A program made the position numbers and the translations under genes. The notes under the pieces were generated by a model that saw only the letters and a list, made by a program, of their open reading frames with translations, was not told where the DNA came from and searched no databases. From assembly GCA_030018135.1 (NCBI GenBank), contig JASEGJ010000001.1:74991-138990 (forward strand): a stretch of 64,000 nt of DNA, written 5' to 3'. This document shows, piece after piece, positions 21,149-43,047 of the stretch; position 1 is the stretch's first letter, and every line of letters begins with the position of its first letter. Source of the stretch: Candidatus Hodarchaeaceae archaeon. GTDB lineage: Archaea; Hadarchaeota; Hadarchaeia; Hadarchaeales; Hadarchaeaceae.

Positions 21149-21273
21149 GGGCTGGCAGCGTCCTAGGGCTCCCGCACCCTCTCGGAGTGCAGTACTGCCT
21201 AGATCGCTGGCGGGCTTATCTTCGGCGTTCGGAATGAGAGCCGGAGTTTCCCCGTCGCTATGGCCGCCAACCC
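21149..21273 (-). rRNA. rrf: 5S ribosomal RNA, stand-alone
   Basis: minus-strand sequence GGGTTGGCGGCCATAGCGACGGGGAAACTCCGG...TCATTCCGAACGCCGAAGATAAGCCCGCCAGCG...GTACTGCACTCCGAGAGGGTGCGGGAGCCC...GCTGCCAGCCC matches conserved 5S blocks (helix I end pairing, loop C CCGAAC, loop E AGTACTG). Confidence 0.8.
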
Positions 21274-21549: not shown

Positions 21550-22656
21550 TCAGAAAAAATCATGTAACCTTCGAATCGCATCGAGCTTTTCCCTTCGCTC
21601 GAGCTTAGCGCCATCGAGCGCTCTCTCTAAAATTTCGGTGGTTCGCTGATACGTCGCCTTGTCGACGGGATAGGGCACGCCGTCCTTGCCCCCGTGCGCG
21701 AAGCTAAAACGAATGGGATCCCGCCAAGAGGGCGGCTTGCCGTAAATCAGGTCCGAAACCAAGGCCAAGGCCCTTATCGTCTTCGGCCCTATTCCCTGGA
21801 TGGCGACCAGTTCCTCGTAATTTGAAGGCTGTAGCTCATAAGCACGCTGCAGCGCGGCCATTGTCCGCTCGGTCAACTCTGTAATTCCGTGCTGAGTTGG
21901 CATGATGAGGGTTAGAACTTGAGGCGAGCGCGCTAGGTATTCATCGAGCGACCGCTGTTCTGCCTCTCGAACGTAAACTACTACCCGCCTCGGATCGTCG
22001 CGCACGAGATCTAAACTGGCCTTTCTCGTTTCCTCGCTCTCATGCGCAGTCATATCAAGCACGAGGTCTTCTCTACGATCTCCAGCGATGCCCGAGTGCG
22101 GCTCCTCGACGAAGCTGCGGACGCCCTCGGAGAGCCAGTGATAGCGCCTCGCCAGCCTATCGTGCATACCCTGTTGCACGACCGCCCAGTCGCCGTCCTC
22201 GCTGAGCACGAAGCAGTGATGGTAGAGCTGGTAGCCGTCCTGCACGCATGCGTTGTCCACCTTGGCCGCCATCCGGCTAGCGTATTTTAGTCTCTCAATC
22301 TTTTGAGAGGATATGGAAAAGACATCGCCGAGCTTCTCTATCTCGCTGGGGGTTCGCCTCGAGACCCTACCCTTCCCCCCGCACACCGCGATGCCCAGCT
22401 CATCCGGCCTTATCGCCTCCTTCAGCGCGCCCATTGTAACGGTGCTCAGTCCCGATGAATGCCAATCATATCCTAACACACAACCAAATGCTTGAAGGAA
22501 AAAAGGGTCGCCCAACCTCCGGAGGAACTCTTGCTTACCGTACTCGTGGACGATAATTTTACTTGTAGCTCCAGCTAGCCTTCTCATTCGGCTGAAAAGC
22601 CACGGGGGGCACCTGCCACCATGCAACGGCAGCTCAGCGATGCCGGTCCTTTTCAT
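21550..22656 (-). CDS. conserved hypothetical protein with C-terminal helix-hairpin-helix (DUF763-like)
   Basis: 368 aa; C-terminal VAIQGIGPKTIRAL HhH motif; family assignment from memory only. Confidence 0.45.
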   Translation of the reverse strand: MKRTGIAELPLHGGRCPPWLFSRMRRLAGATSKIIVHEYGKQEFLRRLGDPFFLQAFGCVLGYDWHSSGLSTVTMGALKEAIRPDELGIAVCGGKGRVSRRTPSEIEKLGDVFSISSQKIERLKYASRMAAKVDNACVQDGYQLYHHCFVLSEDGDWAVVQQGMHDRLARRYHWLSEGVRSFVEEPHSGIAGDRREDLVLDMTAHESEETRKASLDLVRDDPRRVVVYVREAEQRSLDEYLARSPQVLTLIMPTQHGITELTERTMAALQRAYELQPSNYEELVAIQGIGPKTIRALALVSDLIYGKPPSWRDPIRFSFAHGGKDGVPYPVDKATYQRTTEILERALDGAKLERREKLDAIRRLHDFF

Positions 22657-22717
22657 CGTAATCGGTTAAATTTTGATTTTTTGAAGGTAAAAGTATCGCA
22701 CTCAATCGGAAAGTCAA

Positions 22718-22789
22718 ATGTCTTACGTAAGACATCCTAACCCGCTTAGAACGCACCTGATGTAAAACAAGATGTCTGAGTTAGGACAT
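22718..22789. promoter_or_regulatory. two 5-8-5 inverted repeats ATGTC-N8-GACAT (22718-22735 and 22772-22789) in promoter region of the DUF763-like gene
   Basis: ATGTCTTACGTAAGACAT (perfect 18-bp palindrome) and ATGTCTGAGTTAGGACAT, 62-133 bp upstream of the minus-strand ATG at 22656. Confidence 0.4.
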
Positions 22790-22867
22790 CGTGGCCACGA
22801 TTTGGGAACCTACCCCAAAGTAACCCGGCCGAAGAATTTGGCCGAAATGCGGATTTGCCGCCGTCAG

Positions 22868-23092
22868 TCATTTCGTCAGGTAGTAGCCCGCTGCCTTCTG
22901 CCGCGCGACCCTCTTTGCAAAGCCCTTCGCCACGAGCTCCATCAAGGCGTTGTTAGTCATGCCCTTCGGCAGGCCGCTTGCGCGCATGACATCGTCCGCC
23001 GTCTTGAGCGCGTCCGGGCTGGTCGAGCCGAGCTTCTTCAACGCATCGTACACCTTCTTGCCAGCAGGCGTCAGGTCCGCCATTCTTTTCAC
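22868..23092 (-). CDS. small (74 aa) putative winged-helix DNA-binding protein
   Basis: short basic ORF directly upstream of the palindrome-bearing promoter; weak similarity to HTH regulators. Confidence 0.35.
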   Translation of the reverse strand: MKRMADLTPAGKKVYDALKKLGSTSPDALKTADDVMRASGLPKGMTNNALMELVAKGFAKRVARQKAAGYYLTK

Positions 23093-23113
23093 CCAATTTT
23101 CGCTCCTTTTTTG

Positions 23114-23962
23114 TCAGCGCTTGGGTTTAAAACCCTTACCTACTCGAATCTCCAAGCTCATATCCATGGCTGGCGCCCTAAACGTCATGTAGCTGGAGGA
23201 TAATATGTCCACGCCTGTCGCTGCATACTTTGCCACGTTCGCTAAATCAAGCTCGCCGGAGGCCTCGAGCAGCACGCGCTCGCGCAACCCTCGCTCGATC
23301 AACAGCCGCACCGCGCGCTTTATCTCGGCTGGTGTCATGTTGTCGAACATTAAGATGTCTGCTCCTGCCTCCGCTGCCTTGGGTGCATCCCCTGGCTTTC
23401 TCACCTCGATTTCAACCTTCTTCGAAAAGCTAGCACTGCGCGCCCGGCGGATGGCCTCGGCAACTCCGCCGGCGAGCTTGACATGGTTGTCCTTGATCAA
23501 CACACAGTCGTCCAACCTGAATCTGTGGGTATCGCCGCCGCCGAGCCTCACCGCACGTTTGTCGAAGTAGCTGAGCAACGGCATGACCTTGCGGGTCGCG
23601 GCGAGTATGATGTCCGGCTTGACCCGGCGAGCCTTTTCGAGCATTTCGCTGGTCGAGGTCGCCACCCCGCTCATTCGCATCAGTAAGTTCAACGCCGTTC
23701 GCTCGGCAACCAAGATGGATCGGGCTGGGCCCTCCAACTTCATCACGACATCACCGGGTTTGATTGGTTTTCCATCGGATTCCATGGCCTTTATGAGCAC
23801 GCCGACCTCCTCGAAAGCTAGGGCCGCCTCAACCACGCCTGCGAGTATCCCATGTTGCTTCGCAACAATTTCAGCGGTGACCACCGCTTCAGGCGGCACG
23901 ACGGTTTCGGTGGTTATGTCCCCGAAGCCTATATCCTCGGCCAACATCTTCCTAATTTTCAT
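23114..23962 (-). CDS. nadC: nicotinate-nucleotide pyrophosphorylase (quinolinate phosphoribosyltransferase)
   Basis: QPRTase motifs (ILMFDNM); start at internal Met to avoid overlap with nadA. Confidence 0.85.
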   Translation of the reverse strand: MKIRKMLAEDIGFGDITTETVVPPEAVVTAEIVAKQHGILAGVVEAALAFEEVGVLIKAMESDGKPIKPGDVVMKLEGPARSILVAERTALNLLMRMSGVATSTSEMLEKARRVKPDIILAATRKVMPLLSYFDKRAVRLGGGDTHRFRLDDCVLIKDNHVKLAGGVAEAIRRARSASFSKKVEIEVRKPGDAPKAAEAGADILMFDNMTPAEIKRAVRLLIERGLRERVLLEASGELDLANVAKYAATGVDILSSSYMTFRAPAMDMSLEIRVGKGFKPKR

Positions 23963-23975
23963 CTTCGCGAGTACA

Positions 23976-24908
23976 TTAGTCACGCGTTGCCCTCCCGGAT
24001 AACTCAAGCATGCGCTCGATCGCCCCACGGGCGCGATCTGCCAATTTTGGTGGCACGTGCACCTCATTTTTCCTATCTCTAAGGGCTAGGTAAACCTTTT
24101 GCAGGGTATGCTTTTTCATCTGCTCGCAAATCGCGGAGTTGAGCGCGGGCATGAACTCCTTGTCCGGATTTTCGCGCCTTAGCCGCTCGAGCATCCCAAC
24201 CTCAGTTCCGATGATAAATCGCTTGGCTGGCGACGCCCTCGCGCGAAGGAGCATTTGGCTAGTACTGCAGATATGCGTGGCGAGCTGCTGAACCTCGGGG
24301 TCGCATTCGGGGTGGACAATTACCTCGCCGTCAGGATATTTTTCCTTCAGCAGGGCGATGTCGGCGGGCGTGAACATCTTGTGTACGTAGCAATGGCCAT
24401 TTTCCGGGATCGGCACGATCGTCTTGTCCGTGCGACGCTGGGTGAACCAAGCTAGATTGCGATCCGGCCCGAACAAAATTTTTTCCTCGTCGAGCCCATC
24501 CACCACCTGCGGTGCGTTTGCGGAGGTGCAAGCAATATCCGCCTCCGCCTTTGCCTCGGCGAGGGTATTCACATACAACACCACGGCCGCCTGTGGATGT
24601 TTTTTCCTTGCCTCCCGTACCGCACTTGCCGGAAGCTGCGCCGCCATCGGGCACCTCGCCCTTGGATCTGGAATTAATACTGTTTTATCTGGGTTCAGCA
24701 GAGCCGCCGTCTCGGCCATAAAATTCACGCCGCAAAGCAGGATCAAGTCGGCATCCACCTTCGCCGAATACCTCGCCAGGTCCAACGAGTCCCCTATGTA
24801 ATCCGCGATGAGTTGAATCTCGGGGCGTTGATAGTTGTGCGCAAGGATGGCCGCACCCCTCCTCTCCTTCAGCTCCGCTATCCTGCGGTTCAACTCTGCG
24901 ATGTCCAT
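23976..24908 (-). CDS. nadA: quinolinate synthase A
   Basis: 310 aa, AILAHNYQ, FMAETA, three-Cys cluster pattern of NadA. Confidence 0.9.
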   Translation of the reverse strand: MDIAELNRRIAELKERRGAAILAHNYQRPEIQLIADYIGDSLDLARYSAKVDADLILLCGVNFMAETAALLNPDKTVLIPDPRARCPMAAQLPASAVREARKKHPQAAVVLYVNTLAEAKAEADIACTSANAPQVVDGLDEEKILFGPDRNLAWFTQRRTDKTIVPIPENGHCYVHKMFTPADIALLKEKYPDGEVIVHPECDPEVQQLATHICSTSQMLLRARASPAKRFIIGTEVGMLERLRRENPDKEFMPALNSAICEQMKKHTLQKVYLALRDRKNEVHVPPKLADRARGAIERMLELSGRATRD

Positions 24909-24941
24909 CTAAATCCCCAGCAACAGCTTTCGGCGGGCAAA

Positions 24942-25478
24942 TTAAGGTTTTGCCACCATGACTTCCGTGGCTTTTATAACGGCCTCGACGCGGTCGCCTG
25001 TCTTGAGCTCTAGCGCTTCGGCGGCCTCCCTAGTTATGTAAGCAGTTAGTACCGCCGGCCTAACCGCAATTTTTACCTTCGCTCCAATCTCGCCCAGCTC
25101 GACCGCCTCGATCACGCCTTTAAGCCGGTTCCTGGCGGACAACTTCATGGAAATACCCTCCCAAAAGGTTTTTTCCCGCACGATCTCCTCGAGCGCTTCG
25201 TCAATCAGCCTATAATCCTTCACCAACGCCTGTCCCTGCCCAGTCAAACGCATGCCCCCACCGCGCTTGCCTCCGCGAACCGCTTCCACGACCTTGAGGC
25301 CCAGCTTTTGTTCCAGCTTGCGGATGACGCCCCACGCGTGGCGGTATGACATCCCCAGCCTGTGGGCTGCGCGGTTCAGCGATTTCTCCTCCTCGATGGC
25401 GAGCAGGAGTTCCGCCCTCCCCCCGCCAATAATCGGCTCCTCCCCGCTTTGAATCCAAAGCTTTACCTTTGGCTTCAG
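24942..25478 (-). CDS. ModE-like regulator (N-terminal wHTH + C-terminal TOBE/Mop domain); no canonical start codon upstream of conserved N-terminus
   Basis: first ATG at 25352 lies inside the conserved HTH (…LNRAAHR-MSYRHAW); in-frame upstream translation KPKVKLWIQSGEEPIIGGGRAELLLAIEEEKSL matches the ModE N-domain; only a CTG (25476-25478) precedes it. Confidence 0.6.
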   Translation of the reverse strand: MKPKVKLWIQSGEEPIIGGGRAELLLAIEEEKSLNRAAHRLGMSYRHAWGVIRKLEQKLGLKVVEAVRGGKRGGGMRLTGQGQALVKDYRLIDEALEEIVREKTFWEGISMKLSARNRLKGVIEAVELGEIGAKVKIAVRPAVLTAYITREAAEALELKTGDRVEAVIKATEVMVAKP

Positions 25479-25495
25479 CCTGCTCCTGTCGTCCC

Positions 25496-26215
25496 TCAGA
25501 GGAACCCCCCTTCCATCATCCTTTTAATCCTCGCGTCCTCGGGCCGCTTGAGGACCTCCTCCACGGTGCCCTTTGCAATTAAATTGCCATCGAGCAGGTA
25601 CGCGACACGGTCTGATAACCTTCCCGCTTGAAATAAGTTATTTGTCGCAAGGACCACAGCGGATTCCCCCCTTATTTTTTTGATCACCTCTTCTATCGCC
25701 GCAACGCTTGCTGGGTCGAGGTTGGCGGTGGGCTCGTCGAGCAGCAAAAGCTCCGGCTCGAGCGTGAGCGCTCGCGCGAGGGCTACGCGCTGTTGCTCGC
25801 CCCCCGAAAGCTTCTTTGCCGGCCTTTCCGCGTGACCCCCCATACCGACAAGGTCTAGCGCCCATCCAACCCTCCGCCTCCTCTCGCCATCCGGTCGCCC
25901 CTGAAGCTCAAGCCCATAAGCCACATTTTTATAAACAGTTGTGTCGAAGAGGGCCGTCCTCTGGAAAACCATCGTGACCTTCCCTCTCAAAACGCCGGCA
26001 TTGACATCGCCGATCTTCATCCCTTTGTAAAATATCTCCCCGCTCGTCGGTTTGTCGAGAAAGGCCATCAGTCTAAGCAGGGTCGTCTTCCCGGAGCCGT
26101 TTGGCCCGACGATTGTCAGCGCTTCTCCCTCGCGGACATCTAAGTCTACCCCCTTGAGTGCAGATATTCCATCGTACTTCTTGACGACGCCCCTGAGTTC
26201 TTCCAAGGTTGCCAT
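25496..26215 (-). CDS. ABC transporter ATP-binding protein (TupC-like, tungstate/molybdate uptake)
   Basis: Walker A GPNGSGKT, LSGGEQQR signature; in operon with TupA/TupB-like genes. Confidence 0.75.
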   Translation of the reverse strand: MATLEELRGVVKKYDGISALKGVDLDVREGEALTIVGPNGSGKTTLLRLMAFLDKPTSGEIFYKGMKIGDVNAGVLRGKVTMVFQRTALFDTTVYKNVAYGLELQGRPDGERRRRVGWALDLVGMGGHAERPAKKLSGGEQQRVALARALTLEPELLLLDEPTANLDPASVAAIEEVIKKIRGESAVVLATNNLFQAGRLSDRVAYLLDGNLIAKGTVEEVLKRPEDARIKRMMEGGFL

Positions 26216-26842
26216 TTAGTCCCTCCGTAACATATTGACCGCCAGGGTGAGGGCGAAAACTATCGCCATCAAAACGACGGCCAGCCCGATGCATAGCAAT
26301 ATCTCACCCCTCGCCGTTTCTAGGGCGATCGTCGTGGTCATGACGCGCGTGTAGCCGTATATGTTCCCACCCACCATCATCGCCACACCCAGTTCGGAAA
26401 TTGCTCGATTGAATGCGGCGACTACCGCCAGTGTGGCGCCTTTCTTCGCCTCCCTTAAAACTGCGAGGGAGGTTTGCCTCTCGGAGGCACCGAGCGTCCG
26501 CGCCAAGTCCTTGATCTCCGGGTCTACGCCCTCCAACGCGCTCGCCATGAAGCTCACGATAATCGGTGTTATCAGGATCGCCTGCCCGATAATCATCGCC
26601 GCTGGAGTGTACAAAAGGCCCAAGGGGCCGAGCGGGCCTTTCCTCGCAAATAACATGAATAGGATGAGGCCAAGCGCCACCGTCGGGATGCCCAAAAGGG
26701 CGTTAAACATCGCCCTCAGTACGCGCCTACCCACGAAGTCCCGCAGGCCGATGACCGCGGCCAACGGCAGCCCCCAGAGTACCGCCAACAAAGTCGCAGT
26801 GCCTGAAATCCAGAGCGATCGAAGGACGATGTCGAGCAACAT
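26216..26842 (-). CDS. ABC transporter permease (TupB-like)
   Basis: about 210 aa 5-6 TM permease with EAA-like loop; start trimmed to internal Met to avoid overlap with binding-protein gene. Confidence 0.7.
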   Translation of the reverse strand: MLLDIVLRSLWISGTATLLAVLWGLPLAAVIGLRDFVGRRVLRAMFNALLGIPTVALGLILFMLFARKGPLGPLGLLYTPAAMIIGQAILITPIIVSFMASALEGVDPEIKDLARTLGASERQTSLAVLREAKKGATLAVVAAFNRAISELGVAMMVGGNIYGYTRVMTTTIALETARGEILLCIGLAVVLMAIVFALTLAVNMLRRD

Positions 26843-26846
26843 CCCC

Positions 26847-27815
26847 TCACCCATAAAGCTCCTCGTGCCCACCCCTGTAGATCGGTGGACATTCGGTATT
26901 TTCAAAAAACGCGTACTCCCTGATCCAGCCAGCGATCTGCGCGTCCGCGTTCTCCTTGAGCAATTTCACGGCAGGGTAAAACAACGGTTGTCCGTATTCG
27001 TCCTTCCCGTAATCGCCGATCATCGCCTGGCCTTCGGCAGACACCAGAAATTTTATAAATGCGATCGCGCCCTCAAAATTCAGTTCGGGGTAAGTTTTTT
27101 GGCTGACCGCCATGACGCTGTAGACATTTAACAGTTCCTTCCCTTGTCCGACGAGGACACGGAGATCGATCAATCCTCGGTTTGTGTACTGGAGATAAGT
27201 GCCAACGTCAGCTAAGGTGTATGCCCTCTTCTCGCTCGCCATCCGGAGCGCCGCACCCATACCCACACCAAGTTCGATATGCCAAGGTTCCCGGCGCAAC
27301 CGGGATACATCGAATCCGGCCGCGGTCCAGAGATCCTTTTCCTTTATGTGGGTGCCGGAGTTGTCGCCGCGGGAGATCCAAGTTGTTAAACCAGCTCTCC
27401 CGGCCTCGGCTATTTTTCTAAGCGCCTCGATCGGCGGCAAGTCCTTAATGCCAACCGGATCTTCAAGGGGACCAGTTATTGCGAAGAAATTGTAAGCTAT
27501 TATTTTTCGAACCATGCCCAAGTTATCCTCCATGAACTGAAATTCCGCAGATGGCGCGTGTACCAGCAAAACATCGGCCTCCCCCATCTTGGCTTGATAG
27601 ATCGCCTGCCCCGTGCCGACTGGGATTAAAAGGATCTTTGTGTTATACTCCTCTTCGTAATATTTTCCGATGAAATCCAGAAGGCCGGTGTCATACAAGC
27701 TTGTTGTAGTTGCAACTTTTAGCTTCGGTTTTCCCCTCTGCCATAGTTCAACGTACCCGACCGCTGCGATGCTGCATAAAACCAACGCTATTGAAACAAA
27801 GGTAATCTTCTTCAT
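26847..27815 (-). CDS. tungstate/molybdate ABC substrate-binding protein (TupA/WtpA type)
   Basis: signal/anchor peptide, VATTTSLYDTGLLDFI motif characteristic of TupA-family oxyanion-binding proteins. Confidence 0.7.
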   Translation of the reverse strand: MKKITFVSIALVLCSIAAVGYVELWQRGKPKLKVATTTSLYDTGLLDFIGKYYEEEYNTKILLIPVGTGQAIYQAKMGEADVLLVHAPSAEFQFMEDNLGMVRKIIAYNFFAITGPLEDPVGIKDLPPIEALRKIAEAGRAGLTTWISRGDNSGTHIKEKDLWTAAGFDVSRLRREPWHIELGVGMGAALRMASEKRAYTLADVGTYLQYTNRGLIDLRVLVGQGKELLNVYSVMAVSQKTYPELNFEGAIAFIKFLVSAEGQAMIGDYGKDEYGQPLFYPAVKLLKENADAQIAGWIREYAFFENTECPPIYRGGHEELYG

Positions 27816-27884
27816 GTTCCCCGATATTTAAATCGTTATGTCTTTATAAGCATAACGATAAACCAGCGCAAATATCCAGATCCC

Positions 27885-28724
27885 CTAAGTCCCGATTCGA
27901 ACCTTTTCGGTTAGATTGCGCAGCATCCTAACCGCGGATAGGGCCGCGAGGTAGCTTGTCCTCGGGTTATCCGGCGAGGGTACGTTTCGCGCCTCCGTGA
28001 CGAACTCTCCCGCTGTGCCCCGAACCCTGACCTCGTGCACGTTGAGCCTTAGCGATGGATCTGCGACTATCCTCACCTTGGTCTTGTCGAATCCGATCCC
28101 CGCCAAGCTCAAGGTCGCCGCGACGTTGACGCTCTCTGGAAATGCCTTGACCGCCTCTCGCGCTGGCCCCTCGAAGACGACCAGCGGCTCCCGTAGGTTG
28201 GTCAGATCCAAGCCGCGCTCCCGCACGTACGGGCTATAAGTCAAGACGGAGGGAGGTTTTCGCGTCGTCAAAATTGCCTCGTTGATGCCCTCGAGCTGTG
28301 CCGCCTTAACGCCGTCTATGCCCAAGATCGCCCCAGAGGGTACGTGGACCGAGCGCCCAGTTCGTTCGGTGACTTCCCGAACGCCCCTGAGCAGTTCTTC
28401 ATCCCCAAATGCGCCAACACTCATCACCATAAGGTCCTTGCCCGACCTTATGACATCGAGCGCATACTGGGCAACCGCCCCCTGCGAGGCCGCCTCGATG
28501 ACCAGATCGACGGACCCATCGGCACATATCTCGGCTAGGCCCTTTGCTATTCTCGGCCTCGAGCGCAACTTTTCGGAAAGTGCCTTAGATTTCTCAGGCT
28601 TCAGGTCGTACAGCCAAGCTAGTTCCACCTCGCCAGCCCTGCCACTGTCGATGGCCCTTGCCAGTACCGTGCCTATCGCGCCGCAACCGATAAGCGCAGC
28701 CCTCAAGCTTAACGCCCAAACCAT
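27885..28724 (-). CDS. nadX: L-aspartate dehydrogenase
   Basis: Rossmann GCGAIG N-terminus, Asp-DH C-terminal domain (TM1643 family); adjacent to nadA/nadC. Confidence 0.75.
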   Translation of the reverse strand: MVWALSLRAALIGCGAIGTVLARAIDSGRAGEVELAWLYDLKPEKSKALSEKLRSRPRIAKGLAEICADGSVDLVIEAASQGAVAQYALDVIRSGKDLMVMSVGAFGDEELLRGVREVTERTGRSVHVPSGAILGIDGVKAAQLEGINEAILTTRKPPSVLTYSPYVRERGLDLTNLREPLVVFEGPAREAVKAFPESVNVAATLSLAGIGFDKTKVRIVADPSLRLNVHEVRVRGTAGEFVTEARNVPSPDNPRTSYLAALSAVRMLRNLTEKVRIGT

Positions 28725-28779
28725 TTTATGAAGCCTAAAAGTTAAGTTAACTTTTCCCTTGTGGTAGCTTTCGGATTCG

Positions 28780-30208
28780 TTACTCAGATGGATTCTCGCC
28801 CTGCTCCATCAACTGTATGTATGGCTTCAACTTCCTCTCCATCAGCCTGATTATAAAGCCCTTTATCAGAAATCCCTGCAGGGGGTTCTTTCTGAAGTGG
28901 TCGCGCGCGAGCTCGGTGACCCACCTGAAATCGTGCTTCATGCACGCCGCGAGCAACATCCAGTGCTCCGGCAGCATGTCCTTCGCCCTAAAAAATCTCT
29001 CCCCTTGCATGGTCCCTATGGGGACAAAAAACAGCGGGACGATCAGGGATTTATATTCCCTGAGGCTTTCCACTAGCTCTATGGTTTCGACTACATCACT
29101 TGCTGTTTCGTCGGGAAACCCCATGATGAGCGTTGAACACGGGACCCAGTGGTTCTCCCTTAGCAATTTATGGGCTTCCAGCACGAGTTCCGGCCATTCC
29201 TGAGGCCTGAAGGGCGCCGCCTTGCCCCGCATGTATTTTTCCGCAATCCTCCGGGATCCCGTCTCTATCCCAACCTGCCCCGAGACCCAAGGTTTCTGCT
29301 TCGAGCCGAGATTCAGCAGCTCGGAGAGGTCCCTTATTAGGTTCGGTTTTGCCATCGCGGAGGCAAAGGCGAAGTGGGAAAAGCTAACATCCTTCTCCAG
29401 CCTTGAGACTCCCGCGAACAATTTTCAGCACCTTCCTTTCATCGGGGATCGCACCCCTAGCCCCATACCTCAGAACATCCTCGGCATGCAGCAATACGCC
29501 GAGTCCAGCAGCGACGTTTACTTTTACTTCTTCCAATATCCTCTCGATCGGCCTACACCTGAAGTTCAATAGCGTCGGGTTGCAGAATTTACAGCCCCTC
29601 CCGCAACCCCTAGCGATCTCGACGAGGCCGTTGATCGTCGGATTCCTTATTGATGGGATTTGGTCCAGGGGAACGACTTCCCCTTGGACGATCCTCGGAA
29701 GCTCGTCGCCGTTTAATGCTTTTTCGAAAACCTTAACCGCGGTTATCTCGCCCTCCCCCACGACGACGCAATCGATGTCAAATTTCGCGATTATCCTCTC
29801 GTCTGCCAGTTGCCAAGCTCCGGGTCCTCCCACAATGACCTTTAATTTATTTTTTCTGATCACCGGATCCGTAATCAACTTCCTGAAATAAATCGCGGAG
29901 TATGTCTCCCTCCCCGTTAAATCGGCGAAAGTGGTGGATGCGGGGCCTAGCCCGAGAGGGTCATTCGTCGTAATGCCAATGGCCTTCGTTTTCCCGTTTA
30001 TGACTTTATCAAGGTGCTCGGGATGCGCGACGGCAACGTCAAAGTCCTTCTCCAATAAGGCTGCCTCTATCTTTCTGGTCCCGGTCGGTGCGCAGGTCGC
30101 CTCCCCATTTTTTTTGAGGAATTGGCGGGCTGAATATGAGCTTGTAAACCCACCCGGGCACGATTTTTGGGGAACAAGCGGCGAAGCCCAAGAACTCGCT
30201 CCCGCCAT
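28780..30208 (-). pseudogene. B12-binding-domain radical SAM protein disrupted by a frameshift (two overlapping ORFs 29384-30208 and 28780-29421)
   Basis: upstream ORF has B12-binding domain + CGRGCKFC (Cx3Cx2C) and stops about 60 aa later; downstream ORF in another frame carries the rest of the radical SAM barrel (GIETGS, IMGFPDET). Confidence 0.55.
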
Positions 30209-30328
30209 AATCAGACAGGAGAGCGCGATCTGCGGTTAAAACTATCTCGGTCACGGTCCCGCCTCTCAAATTTATATGCAAAAAAATTTACATAAGGGCC
30301 CACAGGAAGGGGCATCCTAGAGTTACTC

Positions 30329-30580
30329 ATGAGGACAAGGGAAAAACTTTCGGTTAGCGAAATAACCGCGTGCATCAATAGGTCAGAGAGAGCCGTCAGA
30401 GCCCACCTAAAAAGTCTTTTCAACTTGGGCCTCGTGTGCAGGGAGGGCAGCGCCACTAAGCACGGAAAGATCGCCCATCGATACTTTGTGCCCAAAACCA
30501 AGGACATGATAAAATCTGCGAGGAAGGAGATGCTCAAGCGCCTGCGCAACTTGGAAAAATTGGTGAGGGGCGCGAAGTGA
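30329..30580 (+). CDS. small winged-helix transcriptional regulator
   Basis: 83 aa, HTH-like core (SVSEITACINRSERAVRAHLKSL), divergent from radical SAM gene. Confidence 0.5.
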   Translation: MRTREKLSVSEITACINRSERAVRAHLKSLFNLGLVCREGSATKHGKIAHRYFVPKTKDMIKSARKEMLKRLRNLEKLVRGAK

Positions 30581-30598
30581 GATCAAGAGCGATCAGCT

Positions 30599-32880
30599 AT
30601 GAACCCCATAGACAAAATTGCTAAACTTTGCGAAAGGAGGCCCCATCTCGTCATCGCTACCGTGGCAATTGTCACTTTGCTCCTCCTTCCGGGAATCCCA
30701 AAAATTACCACCGAAACTAAAATGGAAACGTTCATACCCAAAGACTATCCATCGATAATGGCCCTTTCCGATGTGGAGAAAACATTTGGCGGGATGCGAT
30801 ACGAATCCATCTTGGTTGAGACAAAAAATGGCAAGGTAACAGATGCCGGTGCCATAAAATCGCTACTTGGCCTGCAACGAAAAATCCTTGTAGAACCCGC
30901 TTTGAAAGGGTATGCTGTCGAAGTCGAAAGCTATCTAAATTATCTTTTCCCATATATCATGGAAGATAACCAGCTACTGCCCGATGATGAACTTGAGCTG
31001 GCCGTGCAATCCTTTCTTTCCGGGCCGAGCGGCGCAAGTGTGGTCGGTCGATGGATAACCCCAGATCAAAAAATCTGCTTAATGAATGTAAACGTGGGGG
31101 CACACCTAAAATCGCGCGAAGCTGTGGAGAAAACTCAGTATTTTGAGAACTTGGTCAAAAGCTACGCGGCTGAGCATGGGATTTTTGATGCATCTATTAC
31201 GGGCGGGTACTCGACCTCCAGAGATATGCAAAAAATTATCGAAGAGGACAACCGAGTCTTGTTGCCCGCTGCTGTGGCAATGATCATCGCAATTTTGGCG
31301 TTAGCATTTCGTCGCGTTACCGATGTCGTTTTACCGTTTGTAGTCATTGCCCTAGCGGCGATATGAGTCCTCGGTATGATGGGCCATTTAGGCATCGTAT
31401 TCACGACCGTAGCCGTCGCGGTCCTCCCCCTCTTAATGGGGATAAGCATTGCCTACACTATACACATCATCAGCCGCTACAACGAGGAGAGGTCGAATGG
31501 TAAAAATGCGGGCGAGGCCGCCGTATCGAGCATAAAGAACATGGGCACTGCCGTATTCCTAACGGCTGCGACGACCGCCATAGGCTTTGCCTCCTGGCTT
31601 ATCTCGGACCTGCCGCCGCTCCGCGATTTCGGCCTGCTCTGCATGTTGGGTATAATGTTCAGCTTTGCCCTCACCGTAACGCTACTGCCGGCGTTTTTGG
31701 TCATTCGAGACGGGAAAAAAGGGACCAAGAAAACCAAGGGGACGCAAAGGCTGGGCAGGTCGGCGCTGGACAGGGGATTAGTGAGGATCGCGACAATGAC
31801 CAAACTTCACCCCAAGGGGGTTGTCGCAGTAGCTGGCGCGCTCACGGCAGTTGCGCTGGTCCTGACAACTCAAACTACTACTGCCATCTCATTTGAGGAA
31901 CTCCTGCCAAGCGGGGTCGAATCAATCAGGACCAGCGATGAAATCAGGCAAAATTTCGGCGGTCAGGATCTCATCATGGTTCTGGTCAGGGGCGACGCGA
32001 CCGATCCCAAAGTCCTCGAGACGATGGTATGGCTGGAACAGCATGTTCGCTTGGATAACAGAAATGTTAAAGGCGAGAGGGTTTACATAACGCGCGCGTA
32101 CAGCGTTGCCGACATGGTGTTGATGGCCAGCGCAGGCGCCATACCGCGGACCTCGCAGGAGGTGGCAGCGATCCTTGAAAACCTCAGGCACCAAACACCC
32201 CACGTCGACAGGCTCGTGACCTCCGATAATAACAAAACCATCGCGCTGTTCCACTGCGACGCCCGAAGCGATGCGGAGCTTAAGCTCACCGCCGACATCG
32301 TCAGAGATTGGATCGGCCAGTTGCCTGATAACAGAGCCGAATTCGTGGCCACCGGGACGCCAGTCGTGGCCGCGGATCTGCTCTCGAAAATACCGCAGGA
32401 TGCCCTTAACACCACTATGATGGCGCTCGCCCTATGCGCGGTGGTGCTGTGCATCGTGTTTAAGAGCATTGGAATGGGCTTAATTGCCATGGTGCCGATG
32501 GGTTTGGCACTGACGTGGCAGTTCGGCACATTTTACCTGCTCGATGTCCCCCTTAACGTGATCACGGTGCTGATCTCCGCTCTCCTCGTAGGCATCGGCA
32601 TAGACTTCTCAATCCATACTACCCACCGCTATCTGGAGGGGGTGAGAGATCGCCAGCTTAAACCGGAGGGGGCTGTGCACGCTACCGTGCTCCACGTTGG
32701 CAGGGCGCTCCTAGCAGCTGCTGCGACCACCTGCGGTGCCTTCGGTTTGCTTGCGCTCTCGAGGGTGCCAATAATGAGACCTTCGGCAGCATGACAGCGC
32801 TCGCGATACTCTACTGCATGCTCGCGGCGCTGCTGGTTTTGCCCTCGCTACTTGTCGCCTATGCGGGACGGAGGATGGTT
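30599..32880 (+). pseudogene. MMPL/RND-superfamily transporter interrupted by in-frame TGA (31367-31369) and a frameshift near 32780
   Basis: ORFs 30599-31366 and 31376-32794 share one frame and read through TM helices (…VVIALAAI*VLGMMGHLGIVF…); the authentic C-terminal TM helix (FGSMTALAILYCMLAALLVLPSLLVAYAGRRMVN) is encoded in a different frame after 32784. Confidence 0.55.
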
Positions 32881-33338
32881 AACTAATAGAATGGAAGCAA
32901 AGTAATCGGCGATGCTATTAAGAAGATCAAGAGTGCTCCCATAACTACCATGGCCACTCGTATGGACTTTTCTATATTCTTGTTCACTATCCCGCCACAT
33001 ATCAACATGCCAACGAGAAATACTGTGCCCAGATCGCTAAATACCGTGGACGCCTTCCAAGCTGTTTCCCCTGCCCCCAAATAGAGAAATCAACCTGCCT
33101 ATCCATAGCAAAAATATGCCAAATACTGCGCCTACAGCAATGGCTGTTTCAGAGAACGTCGTTGCAACCATCATTGAAATTAGCGAGGGCGCCTGTTGCA
33201 CCTTCGGCTCACGTCTTCTTTCCACATTTTCAACCCCAAGACTTGATACTTAAACAGTAAAAAGATGGGTATAAATCCTTTGGAGCTTCGGACAAGTGCC
33301 CTACGCCTTATCCTTTCGCGAGTTTTCCTGATTTTTAC

Positions 33339-33461
33339 TGGTGGGGTCGCTGGGATTCGAACCCAGGTCCCTGGCTTTTTTGCCCGACCTTGTCCCATTT
33401 GGCAGACCATTGAGAACTTGATCTTAAGCCAGAAGGATAGGCCAAGCTACCCCACGACCCC
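33339..33461 (-). tRNA. tRNA gene with about 45-nt insertion (intron) in anticodon region and encoded CCA; isotype unresolved
   Basis: acceptor GGGGTCG/CGACCCC + A + CCA, D-loop AGCTTGGCCT, T-arm CTGGG-TTCGAAT-CCCAG, anticodon stem CTGGC...GCCAG separated by about 52 nt; no canonical anticodon loop could be assembled by hand. Confidence 0.5.
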
Positions 33462-33492
33462 AAAAAAACAGGTGATAAAAAGGATAAAAATT

Positions 33493-33807
33493 CTATGGGG
33501 GCCTTGAAATCCTCGCCAAGGGGCCACGCTTGTCGGCGCGCTTGAAGCCATAGCGTTCGTACCGAGCGACTCGTCCCTCGAAAACTTCCGCGACGACCTC
33601 GAAGCCCTTGAAATCGACCAAGATTCGTTCGAGGAGGGCGCTTCCTATCCCCCTGCCCCTCTCGCCGTTGCTCACGTTGATGCTGCGCAGTAGCGCGGTC
33701 CCGTTAGGCCGAAGCGCTACGGTGGCACCAGCTATCACTTTGCTACCGTACTCGTCCCATAGGATGTATTGACACATGCCCCCAGAGTCCATGCGCTCAA
33801 TTCGCAT
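33493..33807 (-). CDS. GNAT-family N-acetyltransferase (small)
   Basis: 104 aa; RGRGIGSALL acetyl-CoA binding motif. Confidence 0.65.
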   Translation of the reverse strand: MRIERMDSGGMCQYILWDEYGSKVIAGATVALRPNGTALLRSINVSNGERGRGIGSALLERILVDFKGFEVVAEVFEGRVARYERYGFKRADKRGPLARISRPP

Positions 33808-34817: not shown

Positions 34818-34925
34818 TGGAGCCCCGGGTGGGCTTTGAACCCACGACCTACTGATCGCTTGCCGCCTGGTTACAAGTTTCGACAGCTCACCTTCAGTCG
34901 CTCTACCAGGCTGAGCTACCGGGGC
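34818..34925 (-). tRNA. tRNA gene with about 31-nt insertion in anticodon loop region, encoded CCA; isotype unresolved
   Basis: acceptor GCCCCGG/CCGGGGC + T + CCA, D-arm GCTC-AGCCTGGTA-GAGC, anticodon stem ACTGA...TCAGT, variable AGGTC, T-arm GTGGG-TTCAAAG-CCCAC. Confidence 0.55.
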
Positions 34926-37094: not shown

Positions 37095-37213
37095 TGCCGG
37101 GGGCGGGACTCGAACCCGCGATCTCAGGATTTCTCACATCATGGTTGATCAGCACTCACAGCCAGTGGTTTGGGCTATGAGTCCTGCGCTTTAACCAGCT
37201 AAGCTACCCCGGC
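37095..37213 (-). tRNA. tRNA-Met(CAT) elongator-type with 46-nt intron at canonical 37/38
   Basis: acceptor GCCGGGG/CCCCGGC, D-arm GCTT-AGCTGGTTA-AAGC, anticodon stem CAGGA/TCCTG, exon loop CTCATA|…|A gives CUCAUAA; intron 3' TGAG pairs with C32-A35 and leaves an AAA bulge (BHB-like). Confidence 0.8.
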
Positions 37214-38235: not shown

Positions 38236-38796
38236 TTGACAATATTTGAAAATGGTGAGGCTGTGAAACGCGTCATACCAGTTAGGGCTGCGATGACCGA
38301 AAAAGTTCTCACGGCTGGCCCTAGGACAACAGTTGCCAAGGCCGCTAAGCTCATGAGCGAGCGCGGCGTCGGTAGCATCATTATCACTCAAGGCAAGAAG
38401 CCGGTGGGCATCCTAACGGAGCGAGACCTGCTCATGAAAGTCGTTTCCGTGGACCTACGACCCAGCAAGGTACTCGTCAGCAAGGTGATGTCGAGTCCGG
38501 TCTTAACTGTCGGTCCCGAGACGGAAGTTGCCGAGGCTGCCCGAGTCATGATCCGCAATAGGATCAGGCGCCTGCCCGTCGTTGACCGCGGGCGCCTCGT
38601 CGGAATCGTAACAGCGAGCGATATCACTGCGATCTCGCCGGAACTTATAGAGGTGTTACCGGAGCGCCCGGAACTGCCACCCCGTGAGGAGATAGATGAG
38701 AGCGTCTGCGAGGTCTGCGGCGAGGTGACCGCCTCACTTCACGAAGTAAATGGCATGTGGGTTTGTGAAAATTGTCGCGACTTTTTGGGCGGGTAG
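38236..38796 (+). CDS. CBS-domain pair protein with C-terminal zinc ribbon
   Basis: two CBS motifs then CEVCGEV…CENC. Confidence 0.7.
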   Translation: MTIFENGEAVKRVIPVRAAMTEKVLTAGPRTTVAKAAKLMSERGVGSIIITQGKKPVGILTERDLLMKVVSVDLRPSKVLVSKVMSSPVLTVGPETEVAEAARVMIRNRIRRLPVVDRGRLVGIVTASDITAISPELIEVLPERPELPPREEIDESVCEVCGEVTASLHEVNGMWVCENCRDFLGG

Positions 38797-38804
38797 ATGA
38801 TGTC

Positions 38805-39620
38805 ATGGCCTGCCGCGATATGCTCATGCGAACTCGCGTTAGCGAAGTGATGCAACCCTGCTCGTGCTTCGTCAGTTCGCGCGACTTGGTGACCAAGGCC
38901 CGCTCACTTATGCGCACCAGCGGCCTTCGAACGTTGCCCGTCGTCGACGATGGCAAGCTGACAGGCATCATAACCGCGCGGCAAATGCTTCGCGTTACCT
39001 CAACCCGCTCAAACATCCCGGTGGCGGGTTTGATGTTCCCCCCTAGGCTTGTGGCTACGCCAGACGACACCATCGGGAAGCTCGTCAAGGATATGATCGA
39101 ACTCGAGATTTCGGCCGTGCCCGTCGTCAAAAGCGTTAGCGACCGAACGATATCCGGCATCGTTGGGCTCGATGACATACTAAGACATATCTCCAAGTCT
39201 TCAAAGCCAAAACTAACGGTGGAGAGAATAATGAAAAGGAAGGTCGCCACATGCACCCCCACGGATGAAATCTCGCGGGTATGGGACATTATGGAGGAAG
39301 CCCACTTCTCCGGCCTGCCTGTCGTGCGTTACGACAAGCGCAAGCGTGCGCTAGAGGTCATAGGCATGATAACCCGCTCGGACATCATTCGCTCGGGAGC
39401 GACGAGGCTGGCCGAGGAGTCCGACAAGGGGCGCTTCCGGAGCCCGCCTCGCGTAAAGAGCCTCATGCGAACCCCCGCTATAACGGCATCCCCTAACATG
39501 TCCCTCTCCGATGCCGTTGAGCTGATGCTGAAGCGCAACATCGGTCGCTTGCCAGTTGTTGAGGACGGCAAGCTAGTTGGGATCGTCAGCCGCGGCGATG
39601 TGATAAAAGCCTGCCTGTAG
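38805..39620 (+). CDS. CBS-domain protein (four CBS repeats)
   Basis: repeated hxxxGhhT/S…RLPVV CBS signatures. Confidence 0.7.
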   Translation: MACRDMLMRTRVSEVMQPCSCFVSSRDLVTKARSLMRTSGLRTLPVVDDGKLTGIITARQMLRVTSTRSNIPVAGLMFPPRLVATPDDTIGKLVKDMIELEISAVPVVKSVSDRTISGIVGLDDILRHISKSSKPKLTVERIMKRKVATCTPTDEISRVWDIMEEAHFSGLPVVRYDKRKRALEVIGMITRSDIIRSGATRLAEESDKGRFRSPPRVKSLMRTPAITASPNMSLSDAVELMLKRNIGRLPVVEDGKLVGIVSRGDVIKACL

Positions 39621-39718
39621 GCGAGCGAATGCGAAGGTTACCCCACGTTGGCTATAAGTCGCGCGACCGGGGCCCGCTGGAGTTCAAATCTAGGCTGAGG
39701 AGGGAGGAGGGCAACATC

Positions 39719-40534
39719 ATGCCGATCGCGCGGCGGAATGTTTTAACCATTCCTCCAACCGTGCGGATAAAAGATGCGGCGGAGTTGATGGTCAAAAATA
39801 AGGTCCGAAGGCTCCCCATAACGGACCCCGGTACGAAACGACTGATCGGCATCGTTACAACGCGCGATATAATAGATTTCCTCGGCGGGGGCGAGCGATC
39901 TAAAATCATCCAAAATAAGTTCAAGGGCAATTTCCTCGCTGCGGTGAACGACCCCATTCGCACGATAATGTCGGAGAAAGTTGTTCATGGAACATTTGAC
40001 ATGTCGATCAAGGATGTTGCAAAGCTTTTGTTGAGAACGGGCGTTGGGGGCGCGCCCATCCTCGACGAACGGGCGCACGTCGTTGGCATGGTATCGGAGC
40101 GAGATTTTGTCCCATACGTACCGATTGCCGCAGGGATTCTAGTGGGCTATCACATGACTCGAAAAGTTGTGACCGCCGAGCCCGAGCTGCAGATCAAAGA
40201 AGCCGCTCGGCGGATGGTTTCCAGGGGCGTACGCCGCCTGCCGGTCGTCTGCGACCGGGAGCTCGTTGGGATCGTCACGAGCGTCGATATCCTCCGGTAC
40301 TTTGGTACGAGCGAGATGTTTGAGCACATGGCCCATGGAAGGGTGGACGAGGCAATGTCGGTTGGGGTCGATAGGATAATGACGAGCAAGGTACTCACGG
40401 TAACGCCGCAAACTGACATAGGCGAGGCGGCTGCGCTGATGGTCGAGCGCGGCTGCGGCGGCTTACCTGTTGTAGAAAGGGATGAACTCGTGGGCATAAT
40501 GACCGAGCGCAACGTGCTGGAGTTGTTAATTTGA
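39719..40534 (+). CDS. CBS-domain protein (four CBS repeats)
   Basis: CBS signatures; start at internal Met MPIARRNV. Confidence 0.7.
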   Translation: MPIARRNVLTIPPTVRIKDAAELMVKNKVRRLPITDPGTKRLIGIVTTRDIIDFLGGGERSKIIQNKFKGNFLAAVNDPIRTIMSEKVVHGTFDMSIKDVAKLLLRTGVGGAPILDERAHVVGMVSERDFVPYVPIAAGILVGYHMTRKVVTAEPELQIKEAARRMVSRGVRRLPVVCDRELVGIVTSVDILRYFGTSEMFEHMAHGRVDEAMSVGVDRIMTSKVLTVTPQTDIGEAAALMVERGCGGLPVVERDELVGIMTERNVLELLI

Positions 40535-41397
40535 AGGTTGTCGACGTTATGAGCTCGCCCGTGGTTGCGATAGGGTCTACGGGGCCAATAGCACATGCAA
40601 AGAACCTGATGTTGCGCCACGACATAAAACGTCTTGTTGTGGTCGAGCGAGGGGGCCCGGTCGGAATAGTTTCAATGAGCGATCTCGCGGAGCGCCTTGA
40701 CAGCGGAACCTCAGCTTGGCGACGACGCCCCATCGATCGCATTCCGATCGCGCGGGTGATGAGCAAAAACTTGATTACGGTGTCACCAGGCACCGATTTG
40801 AGCGAGGCCGCCAGGTTGCTGCTGAAGCACGGCATTAGTAGCTTGGTAATAACCGAGGGCAAAAAACTTATCGGTATCCTGACAAAGACGGATTTGGCGC
40901 GCTTCTTCGCTAAAAATTTGAGAGGTCGAGCGATGGTTCGAGAGCTGATGAGCACAAGTGTAATAACCGTGAACCGTCGACACTCGCTCGCTCACGTCGT
41001 CGAACTCATGGAAAGAAATAACGTGGGTCGTGTGGTGGTCGTGGATGGCGCTAAGCCGATAGGCACAGTGACTGCAAGCGATGTAGCATTCGCGCAGCTC
41101 GAAAGACCAGTCGAGGGCATAGCTCGACGCGAACTCAAATTCACGAGAAAACCTGCGCGAGCCGATAGGCCAAAATATAGATACGTGAAGTATGTCGCCC
41201 TGCTTACCGCTGAGGATATGATGAGGTCTGAGCTGCTCACCGTCGAAGCGGGCGAAGATGCCGCAATGGCGGCTGAGCGAATGCTCAAGTATGGGAAAAG
41301 CGGTCTGCCGGTCGTCGAGCGTGGCGAGTTGGTGGGCATCCTGACGAAGACCGACTTCACTAAAGGAATCGCGAGGCTTGGACGAAATGCGCGTTAG
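40531..41397 (+). CDS. CBS-domain protein (four CBS repeats)
   Basis: CBS signatures; 4-nt overlap with upstream paralog. Confidence 0.7.
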   Translation: MKVVDVMSSPVVAIGSTGPIAHAKNLMLRHDIKRLVVVERGGPVGIVSMSDLAERLDSGTSAWRRRPIDRIPIARVMSKNLITVSPGTDLSEAARLLLKHGISSLVITEGKKLIGILTKTDLARFFAKNLRGRAMVRELMSTSVITVNRRHSLAHVVELMERNNVGRVVVVDGAKPIGTVTASDVAFAQLERPVEGIARRELKFTRKPARADRPKYRYVKYVALLTAEDMMRSELLTVEAGEDAAMAAERMLKYGKSGLPVVERGELVGILTKTDFTKGIARLGRNAR

Positions 41398-42181
41398 TCA
41401 AATAATGACCCCAAATGTCATTACCATAGACAAGGATATATCGCTGGCCGAGGCGATAGGACAAATGCGACGCCACGAGATATCGCGCCTAGTGGTCACG
41501 GATGCTGGAAAGATCGATGGAATCGTCACGGAGCGGGATATTGCTCGAGAATTGGGCTCGACGCGCAGCTACCGTTTGCCCCCTGGTAGGATGCACGTTT
41601 CAAACGTCATGACTGCCAATCCGGTGACGGTCGCACCCGACATCACGGCAAAGCGCGCCGCCGAACTCATGCTCGATAACGACATCAGTGGGTTGCCGGT
41701 AGTTGAGGATGACAAACTGGCCGGCATCGTCACGAAAATGGATTTCGCAAAGGTATGCATGGGTTTTGATGATATTTTCGCGGGGCAGATTATGCAGTCC
41801 AGCCCGCGAACCGCCACGCCAAGCGACCGCGTGATACATGCACGCAGGTTGCTGTTTGAAGAGGACCTAATTAGCCTGCCCGTGGTCGAGGCGGGCGAAC
41901 TCGTGGGCATCGTAACGGTGCGGGATATTGCGATGTGCCTCGCCGCGTTTCAGGAGGTGGTGCCGGACAGGCACAAGAGCGAGCGCATCCGCAATTTGTT
42001 GGTCGAGGACATCATGACCCAGCCGGCGACAACCACGCATACCGACGCAAAGCTTTCCGACATCGCACGCGTCATGTTCGAGCGACGCTTTTCCAGCTTG
42101 CCGGTGCTCAACTTGGAGGACGAGCTCGTCGGTTTGGTCACGAGGACCGAGCTGACCGAGGTCGCGCGGGAGCGCCTTTGA
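41378..42181 (+). CDS. CBS-domain protein (four CBS repeats)
   Basis: CBS signatures; fifth tandem paralog. Confidence 0.7.
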   Translation: MDEMRVSQIMTPNVITIDKDISLAEAIGQMRRHEISRLVVTDAGKIDGIVTERDIARELGSTRSYRLPPGRMHVSNVMTANPVTVAPDITAKRAAELMLDNDISGLPVVEDDKLAGIVTKMDFAKVCMGFDDIFAGQIMQSSPRTATPSDRVIHARRLLFEEDLISLPVVEAGELVGIVTVRDIAMCLAAFQEVVPDRHKSERIRNLLVEDIMTQPATTTHTDAKLSDIARVMFERRFSSLPVLNLEDELVGLVTRTELTEVARERL

Positions 42182-42950: not shown

Positions 42951-43047
42951 GCGGCCGTGGTCCAGCCTGGTTAGGGCGTTAAGCGCCGCCAAAGGACCCA
43001 GGCTCCCCAAGCCTGTGGCGCGGGTTCGAATCCCGCCGGCCGCACCA
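42951..43047 (+). tRNA. tRNA gene with about 20-nt insertion near the D-arm/anticodon-stem junction, encoded CCA; probable Gly(CCC)
   Basis: acceptor GCGGCCG/CGGCCGC + A + CCA; D-stem GTCC with two candidate 3' partners (GGGC before, GGAC after the insertion); anticodon arm CAGGC-TCCCCAA-GCCTG (C at position 33); T-arm GCGGG-TTCGAAT-CCCGC. Confidence 0.55.

Follow-up and report, generated by a model that had tools for sequence, protein, structure and literature searches.

A twice-broken HAE3-family transporter gene of a hadarchaeal genome, probably a recent pseudogene in a small decaying locus

The 64,000-nucleotide stretch of contig JASEGJ010000001.1 analysed here (the window, deposited under the name Candidatus Hodarchaeaceae archaeon) comes from the metagenome-assembled genome (MAG) of an uncultured, Hadesarchaea-like hot-spring archaeon and contains a gene for a large membrane transporter of the MMPL/RND type that is interrupted by an in-frame TGA and ends in a different frame from the one in which it starts. 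This raises the question of whether the gene is decoded in an unusual way, makes two separate proteins, is broken by assembly errors, or no longer works. The evidence points with good confidence to the last of these: the locus very probably holds a real, recently inactivated HAE3/MMPL pseudogene within a small decaying locus. It is an ordinary pseudogene and nothing new in kind.

The transporter gene and its two breaks

The gene occupies positions 30599-32886 on the plus strand. The ORF list, raw sequence and translation show two open reading frames (ORFs), 30599..31366 (255 aa) and 31376..32794 (472 aa), that share a frame and have a lone stop between them, and translation across the stop reads PFVVIALAAI, then the stop, then VLGMMGHLG. 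With both breaks conceptually repaired, this is one gene encoding an HAE3/MMPL-family RND transporter of 762 aa. The initial annotation had described one MMPL/RND transporter split by a single stop, and that description holds, as the repaired protein covers 99% of its length against intact homologs of 764-777 aa. The parts of the gene are as follows.

30599..31363, plus strand: N-terminal segment, codons 1-255, with transmembrane helix 1 (TM1), the first large external domain, TM2 and the first half of TM3 (ORF and translation; aligns to homolog residues 1-255; hydropathy).
31364..31366, plus strand: in-frame TGA in place of the Trp-256 codon, TGG>TGA by a single G>A at 31366 (sequence; homolog alignment).
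31367..32776, plus strand: middle segment, from the rest of TM3 to TM11, in the frame of the N-terminal segment; gene callers begin the 472-aa ORF at ATG 31376 (single-frame tblastn high-scoring segment pair, HSP, 30608..32776, to the orthologs in contigs L082 and L083).
32777..32778, plus strand: frameshift site, a two-base codon remnant "AG" with one base lost, with no homopolymer and no slippery heptamer (sequence; HSP break; alignment around MPxM-G-TFGG).
32779..32886, plus strand: C-terminal tail carrying the last TM helix, TFGSMTALAILYCMLAALLVLPSLLVAYAGRRMVN, read in the -1 (+2) frame up to TAA 32884-32886 (three-frame translation; tblastn HSP 32782..32871; alignment).
32792..32794, plus strand: premature TGA in the shifted frame, closing the 472-aa ORF after RVPIMRPSAA (ORF list; the NCBI protein MDI6819423.1 ends identically).

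The repaired protein scores 396.3 bits against the NCBIfam HAE3 model TIGR00921, exceeding the curated cutoff of 351.9, and matches the Pfam MMPL model PF03176 in two stretches with E=6.2e-57, well beyond what is expected by chance. Kyte-Doolittle hydropathy, a crude measure from which the helix count is approximate, gives peaks at residues 15-33, 219-237, 243-261, 317-335, 351-369, 407-425, 611-629, 654-672, 703-721 and 725-753. Large loops lie at residues 34-218 and 426-610, and the protein falls into two MMPL/sterol-sensing-like halves. The fold is thus the expected one, with about 12 TM helices, an internal duplication and large external loops following TM1 and TM7. The sequence belongs to the family, but a functional HAE3 member has an intact single reading frame and here the frame is broken twice; the gene is therefore filed as a pseudogene of the HAE3 family. 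In the first-half TM4 motif GISIAYTIH (about 31430-31460) the window protein has Ala at a position that is Asp in 13 of 17 homologs, every close one among them, and Ala in four more distant homologs. The Asp of the second-half motif GIGIDFSIH is kept. In characterised MMPL proteins the TM4-motif Asp has a proton relay role.

The best database relatives of the transporter are intact, share 52-58% identity over 99% coverage and are mostly 764-777 aa long; the closest full-length homolog is 58% identical. One of the best is a protein of Hadesarchaea archaeon B3_Hades (P0002, 772 aa). All eight homologs with at least 52% identity are single ORFs, with a full range of 727-812 aa. A profile scan of genome contigs with an 18-sequence alignment adds relatives at 23-37% identity, with no close Hadesarchaea ortholog among the matches listed, and a search of metagenome contigs with six 8-residue peptides from the transporter found no relative and hence no intact allele at strain level. 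The window shares with the B3_Hades genome and with an ENA contig the order of RNA polymerase subunits, DUF763, QRPTase, NadA, aspartate dehydrogenase, small regulator and transporter. Because this gene order is conserved, the window gene is the positional counterpart of an intact gene. The transporters of the B3_Hades contig L082 (10001-12319) and of L083 (10001-12439) are 86.7% identical to each other, though their aspartate dehydrogenases share only 71.8%; the window transporter shares 55-57% with each of the two. Such a pattern suggests unusual conservation, transfer between these relatives, or that the window organism has a distinct paralog lineage. A second MMPL gene is present in L083.

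The premature stop lies in the middle of a membrane helix, within the hydrophobic segment of residues 243-261. The initial annotation had suggested alignment to intact orthologs; in the 18-sequence alignment the column of the TGA is Trp in 17 of the 17 homologs. Tryptophan has a single codon. As every homolog has Trp and only TGG encodes it, the lesion is therefore TGG>TGA, one G>A transition at 31366. The in-frame TGA reported earlier is real; its position is 31364-31366, and the codon at 31367-31369, where it had been placed, is GTC.

The second break lies just before the last helix. In tblastn with two orthologs the alignment breaks between 32776 (frame 2) and 32782 (frame 1), and homology bounds the frame change between ATG 32774-76 in frame 0 and ACC 32779-81 in the frame of the tail. 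The site reads CCA ATA ATG AG ACC. From this break the lesion is placed at the "AG" remnant at 32777-78, with one base deleted. In the alignment it falls in the SRMPxM-G-TFGG motif immediately before the last helix, and the out-of-frame tail matches the last helix of the orthologs at 70-73% identity. We find no slippery X XXY YYZ heptamer in frame after 32600, and no homopolymer of at least 5 bases in 32740-32799. A last helix in another frame after a 1-nt indel had been recognized from the start; the frame change, first put after 32784, lies a few bases earlier, at 32777/78. Against the intact homologs both lesions are disabling, so the reading of the initial annotation, that the gene appears inactivated by two independent lesions, is supported.

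Damaged neighbours and the age of the probable inactivation

The damage extends upstream of the transporter to genes that the initial annotation did not report as damaged. It is seen by comparison with L084, a Logan contig from the Tuwa hot-spring metagenome (SRR16588181) that is 92.5% identical to window 25635-30834. This contig stops at transporter codon 80; it contains the first 80 codons and ends short of both transporter lesions.

28780..30254, minus strand: B12-binding-like radical SAM pseudogene in three frames, with +1 nt at 30108 (T8 versus T7) and +1 nt at 29422 (T4 versus T3) (tblastn; comparison with L084).
30294..30295, no strand assigned: junction of a 103-bp deletion relative to L084, with loss of the first ~19 regulator codons and 47 nt of an AT-rich divergent intergenic region (blastn and mafft against L084).
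30296..30580, plus strand: ArsR-like helix-turn-helix (HTH) regulator, N-terminally truncated (83-88 aa versus 113 aa in L084), 18 bp upstream of the transporter (tblastn 30296..30577; P0129, P0130 and P0131; HTH_5 domain).

The 549-aa radical SAM ortholog of L083 gives three tblastn HSPs against the window, in frames -3, -1 and -2, and L084 carries an intact 534-aa copy (P0128). A further 1-nt difference at 28790, near the 3' end of this gene, was left out of the lesion count, as the C-terminal tails are not conserved between relatives. The AT-rich intergenic region is probably a divergent promoter region. L084 has the radical SAM gene, regulator and HAE3 transporter side by side. So does the distant relative L083, there with a UPPS-type prenyltransferase and an AbrB-like gene between them. 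The trio is intact in the distant Hadesarchaea relative, and in L084 the radical SAM gene and the regulator are intact.

The rest of the window looks sound. Thirty other window ORFs match Pfam models essentially end to end, with the exception of one cut by the window edge and one without a Pfam hit. RpoB, RpoH, DUF763, QRPTase, NadA and aspartate dehydrogenase each give a single tblastn HSP (67-82% identity), and there are no indels relative to L084 in the coding sequences of aspartate dehydrogenase, the PBP protein, the permease and the ABC gene. A segment of ~4 kb (28.8-32.9 kb) thus holds five lesions, while the other genes checked, across the remaining ~60 kb, showed none. The decay hits a locus, not one gene.

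The inactivation appears to be recent. Between the window and L084, the ratio of nonsynonymous to synonymous substitution rates (dN/dS) is 0.16 for the first 78 codons of the transporter, 0.17 for the radical SAM gene and 0.22 for the regulator; for the intact neighbours it is 0.08-0.23, with dS of 0.15-0.33. Among 58 otherwise invariant columns of the transporter alignment two are altered (one conservative S>T, plus the stop), which is no worse than in intact homologs. The low dN/dS and the retained invariant residues therefore indicate purifying selection for nearly all of the divergence, with inactivation late. By a rough estimate, five disabling lesions could build up in 4 kb with ~1% of neutral divergence, an amount too small to show in dN/dS. 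Against the B3_Hades-type proteins, which are 87% identical to each other, the window transporter reaches only 55-57%, and the corresponding values for aspartate dehydrogenase are 68-76%. We considered the low transporter identity as a sign of long decay and rejected it on the low dN/dS against L084 and the retained invariant residues; the window transporter is more likely a divergent ortholog or a member of a paralog lineage.

The probable inactivation and the alternative explanations

We propose the following course of events. Regulator and transporter, 18 bp apart, were probably co-transcribed, and the 103-bp deletion may have taken away their promoter and the start of the regulator, with the later lesions following. 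In this order, expression of the module or the need for it would have been lost first, and neutral lesions would then have accumulated. In the transporter itself, the G>A change turned the conserved Trp-256 codon TGG, in a membrane helix, into TGA, and the one-base deletion at 32777/78 shifted the frame of the last membrane helix. The translated product would be a 255-residue N-terminal fragment, and re-initiation at ATG 31376 could give at best 472 residues, a piece missing the last helix as well as everything from TM1 through the first external domain and TM2 to the middle of TM3. Neither of these fragments could form a 12-helix transporter, and we infer the loss of transporter function from where the breaks lie.

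Several points weigh against this account. The agreement between the MAG and an independent assembly (below) rests on assemblies; if both come from the same run, it shows read support and not biological replication. No close relative spans codon 256 or the frameshift site, and the ancestral state is read from distant homologs, the closest full-length one at 58%. Relaxed selection, in the form of raised dN/dS or lost invariant residues, is not seen; this fits a very recent inactivation and gives no support alone, and unrelaxed dN/dS is also expected from an intact gene with sequence errors. Finally, both radical SAM frameshifts are in homopolymers (T8 and T4), where sequencing errors are commonest.

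A bolder form of the preferred reading, to which we give a small chance, takes the co-decay as marking radical SAM enzyme, ArsR-like regulator and HAE3 transporter as one functional module, freshly discarded; or, in a more speculative version, the UGA is partly read as Trp and some residual expression persists. If the module is real, it could, for example, modify a lipid or other hydrophobic compound and export it. The co-decay is a weak hint that the three proteins work together.

Slightly less probable still, and unlikely, is that the gene is intact in the organism and that the TGA and the lost base arose as consensus errors or through a strain-variant chimera in the MAG. The window does derive from a metagenome-assembled genome, the dN/dS and the conservation of invariant residues resemble those of a working gene, and the neighbouring frameshifts sit in homopolymer runs. 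Against this, the separately assembled Logan contig SRR23186779_11701 (11,351 bp) matches window 22100-33450 at 100.000% identity; it contains both lesions, and its ORFs of 255 aa and 472 aa are the same. The lesions are thus reproduced at the level of assembly, although its reads and those of the MAG may come from one run. The NCBI proteins MDI6819420-23 (MAG "Candidatus Hodarchaeaceae archaeon", 142,297-bp contig) are the same fragments; the deposited 332-aa "MMPL family transporter" shares the end RVPIMRPSAA, and the public locus tags QMC89_00720 and QMC89_00725 are adjacent radical SAM fragments. The TGA is a substitution, and the transporter deletion lies outside any homopolymer. Moreover, random errors would not cluster as these five lesions do, in one ~4-kb locus with none in the other genes checked, and random consensus errors are therefore unlikely.

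Recoding is very improbable. Here a suppressor or near-cognate tRNA would insert Trp at the UGA, or selenocysteine would be inserted there, and programmed -1 frameshifting would join the tail to give a full-length transporter. UGA is leaky to near-cognate read-through by tRNA-Trp. The stop sits exactly on a Trp codon, so such read-through would restore the wild-type residue, and the remaining protein sequence is undegraded. However, no stop codon is commoner in the window than TGA, which closes 30 of 74 long ORFs; this agrees with the initial annotation, which took TGA as a normal stop and recoding as unlikely. The DUF763 gene ends at TGA precisely at the last residue of its ortholog (368/368), and the PBP protein is 322 aa, equal to that of a close relative. 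Stop-codon usage, together with 30 ORFs that fit Pfam models without read-through, led us to reject a code-4-like assignment of UGA to Trp. Selenocysteine was likewise rejected: the site is Trp in the homologs and not the Cys expected for selenocysteine. Of the selenocysteine elements that the initial annotation had proposed to check, SECIS and tRNA-Sec were looked for in the window and not found. No selenocysteine insertion sequence (SECIS) reaches the Rfam gathering score, and at E<=10 across 30200-33600 only a tRNA matched; among the 7 tRNAs of the window there is no tRNA-Sec and no tRNA with a UCA anticodon, the search being confined to the window. With neither slippery heptamer nor homopolymer at the shift site, programmed -1 frameshifting was rejected as well. 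Two recoding devices in one gene, beside two damaged genes, would not be parsimonious.

Just as improbable is a functional split, in which two products of 255 aa and 472 aa together make up a working transporter. RND-superfamily proteins can function as separate polypeptides, as SecD and SecF do, and an ATG lies 10 nt past the TGA; but the break falls mid-helix (residue 256 of 243-261) and not between the repeat halves near residues 380-400, the last helix is lost to the frameshift regardless, all eight homologs named above are unsplit, and single genes are seen in the contig of the close relative and in more distant relatives, the split being found in this MAG only.

Meaning, other features of the window and comparison with known systems

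Recent inactivation of the transporter as part of a decaying locus has practical consequences. In the annotation, the 332-aa "MMPL family transporter" and the "hypothetical proteins" of 213 aa and 223 aa should become two pseudogenes, and the transporter should be left out of metabolic reconstructions of this MAG. The locus would serve as a small, clean example of a freshly inactivated module in a lineage whose genomes are small. It has no bearing on genetic-code change or on the use of selenocysteine in archaea.

Some other features of the window deserve mention. The MAG label "Candidatus Hodarchaeaceae archaeon" refers to an Asgard family (taxid 2798925), while the genes of the window are 67-82% identical and syntenic to those of B3_Hades (RpoB 82%); the label looks like a mix-up of the names Hadarchaeaceae and Hodarchaeaceae. 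Introns of ~19-48 nt are present in 4 of the 7 tRNA genes, at 33342-33461, 34821-34925 and 37095-37213 (all minus strand) and at 42951-43044 (plus strand). The first of these lies just downstream of the transporter pseudogene. In the tRNA at 42951 (Gly-CCC according to ARAGORN), the cmscan alignment places an insertion in the D-loop region, a non-canonical intron position. A lone 5S rRNA gene lies at 21150-21271 (minus strand), and the window contains neither a 16S nor a 23S gene; tRNA-Asp and tRNA-Lys are ~0.8-1.1 kb from it, with a HAD hydrolase gene intervening. Between NadA and aspartate dehydrogenase, at 24942-27827 (minus strand), there is a TOBE-domain regulator with a molybdate/tungstate-type ABC transporter (ATPase, permease and binding protein). 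L084 has this cluster too, but the B3_Hades contig L082 lacks it at this position. Five consecutive ORFs occupy 38236-42181 (plus strand); the first (38236-38796) matches Pfam CBS, and the other four are CBS-like by eye from their translations.

Among known systems, the HAE3 RND transporters (TIGR00921, with P0002 of B3_Hades) are the closest. The window gene shares with them a score above the family cutoff, the two halves, the two large loops, the ~12 helices and the genomic position. It differs from them in a frame broken twice, in an identity of 55-58% though the relatives are 87% identical to each other, and in the Ala in TM4 where 13 of 17 homologs have Asp. With the lipid exporters MmpL3 and HpnN it has a common MMPL fold signature and partial matches to the MmpL3, HpnN and BstA models. 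These matches reach 63-140 bits, far under the cutoffs of 750-1400, so the window protein is no ortholog of MmpL3, HpnN or BstA. The systems that recode UGA also have an in-frame UGA at a conserved position, decoded as Trp in genetic code 4. In contrast, TGA is a normal stop in the window, where no SECIS or UCA-anticodon tRNA was found, and the homologs have Trp and not Cys at the site. The best parallel for the damage itself is the ordinary pseudogene with nonsense and frameshift lesions. Mycobacterium leprae carries many mmpL pseudogenes, and the window locus resembles such cases in having several lesions in a recognisable gene and damaged neighbours. It differs from them in its very recent decay, in which amino-acid changes show no excess and which is limited to one ~4-kb locus in an otherwise intact 64 kb.

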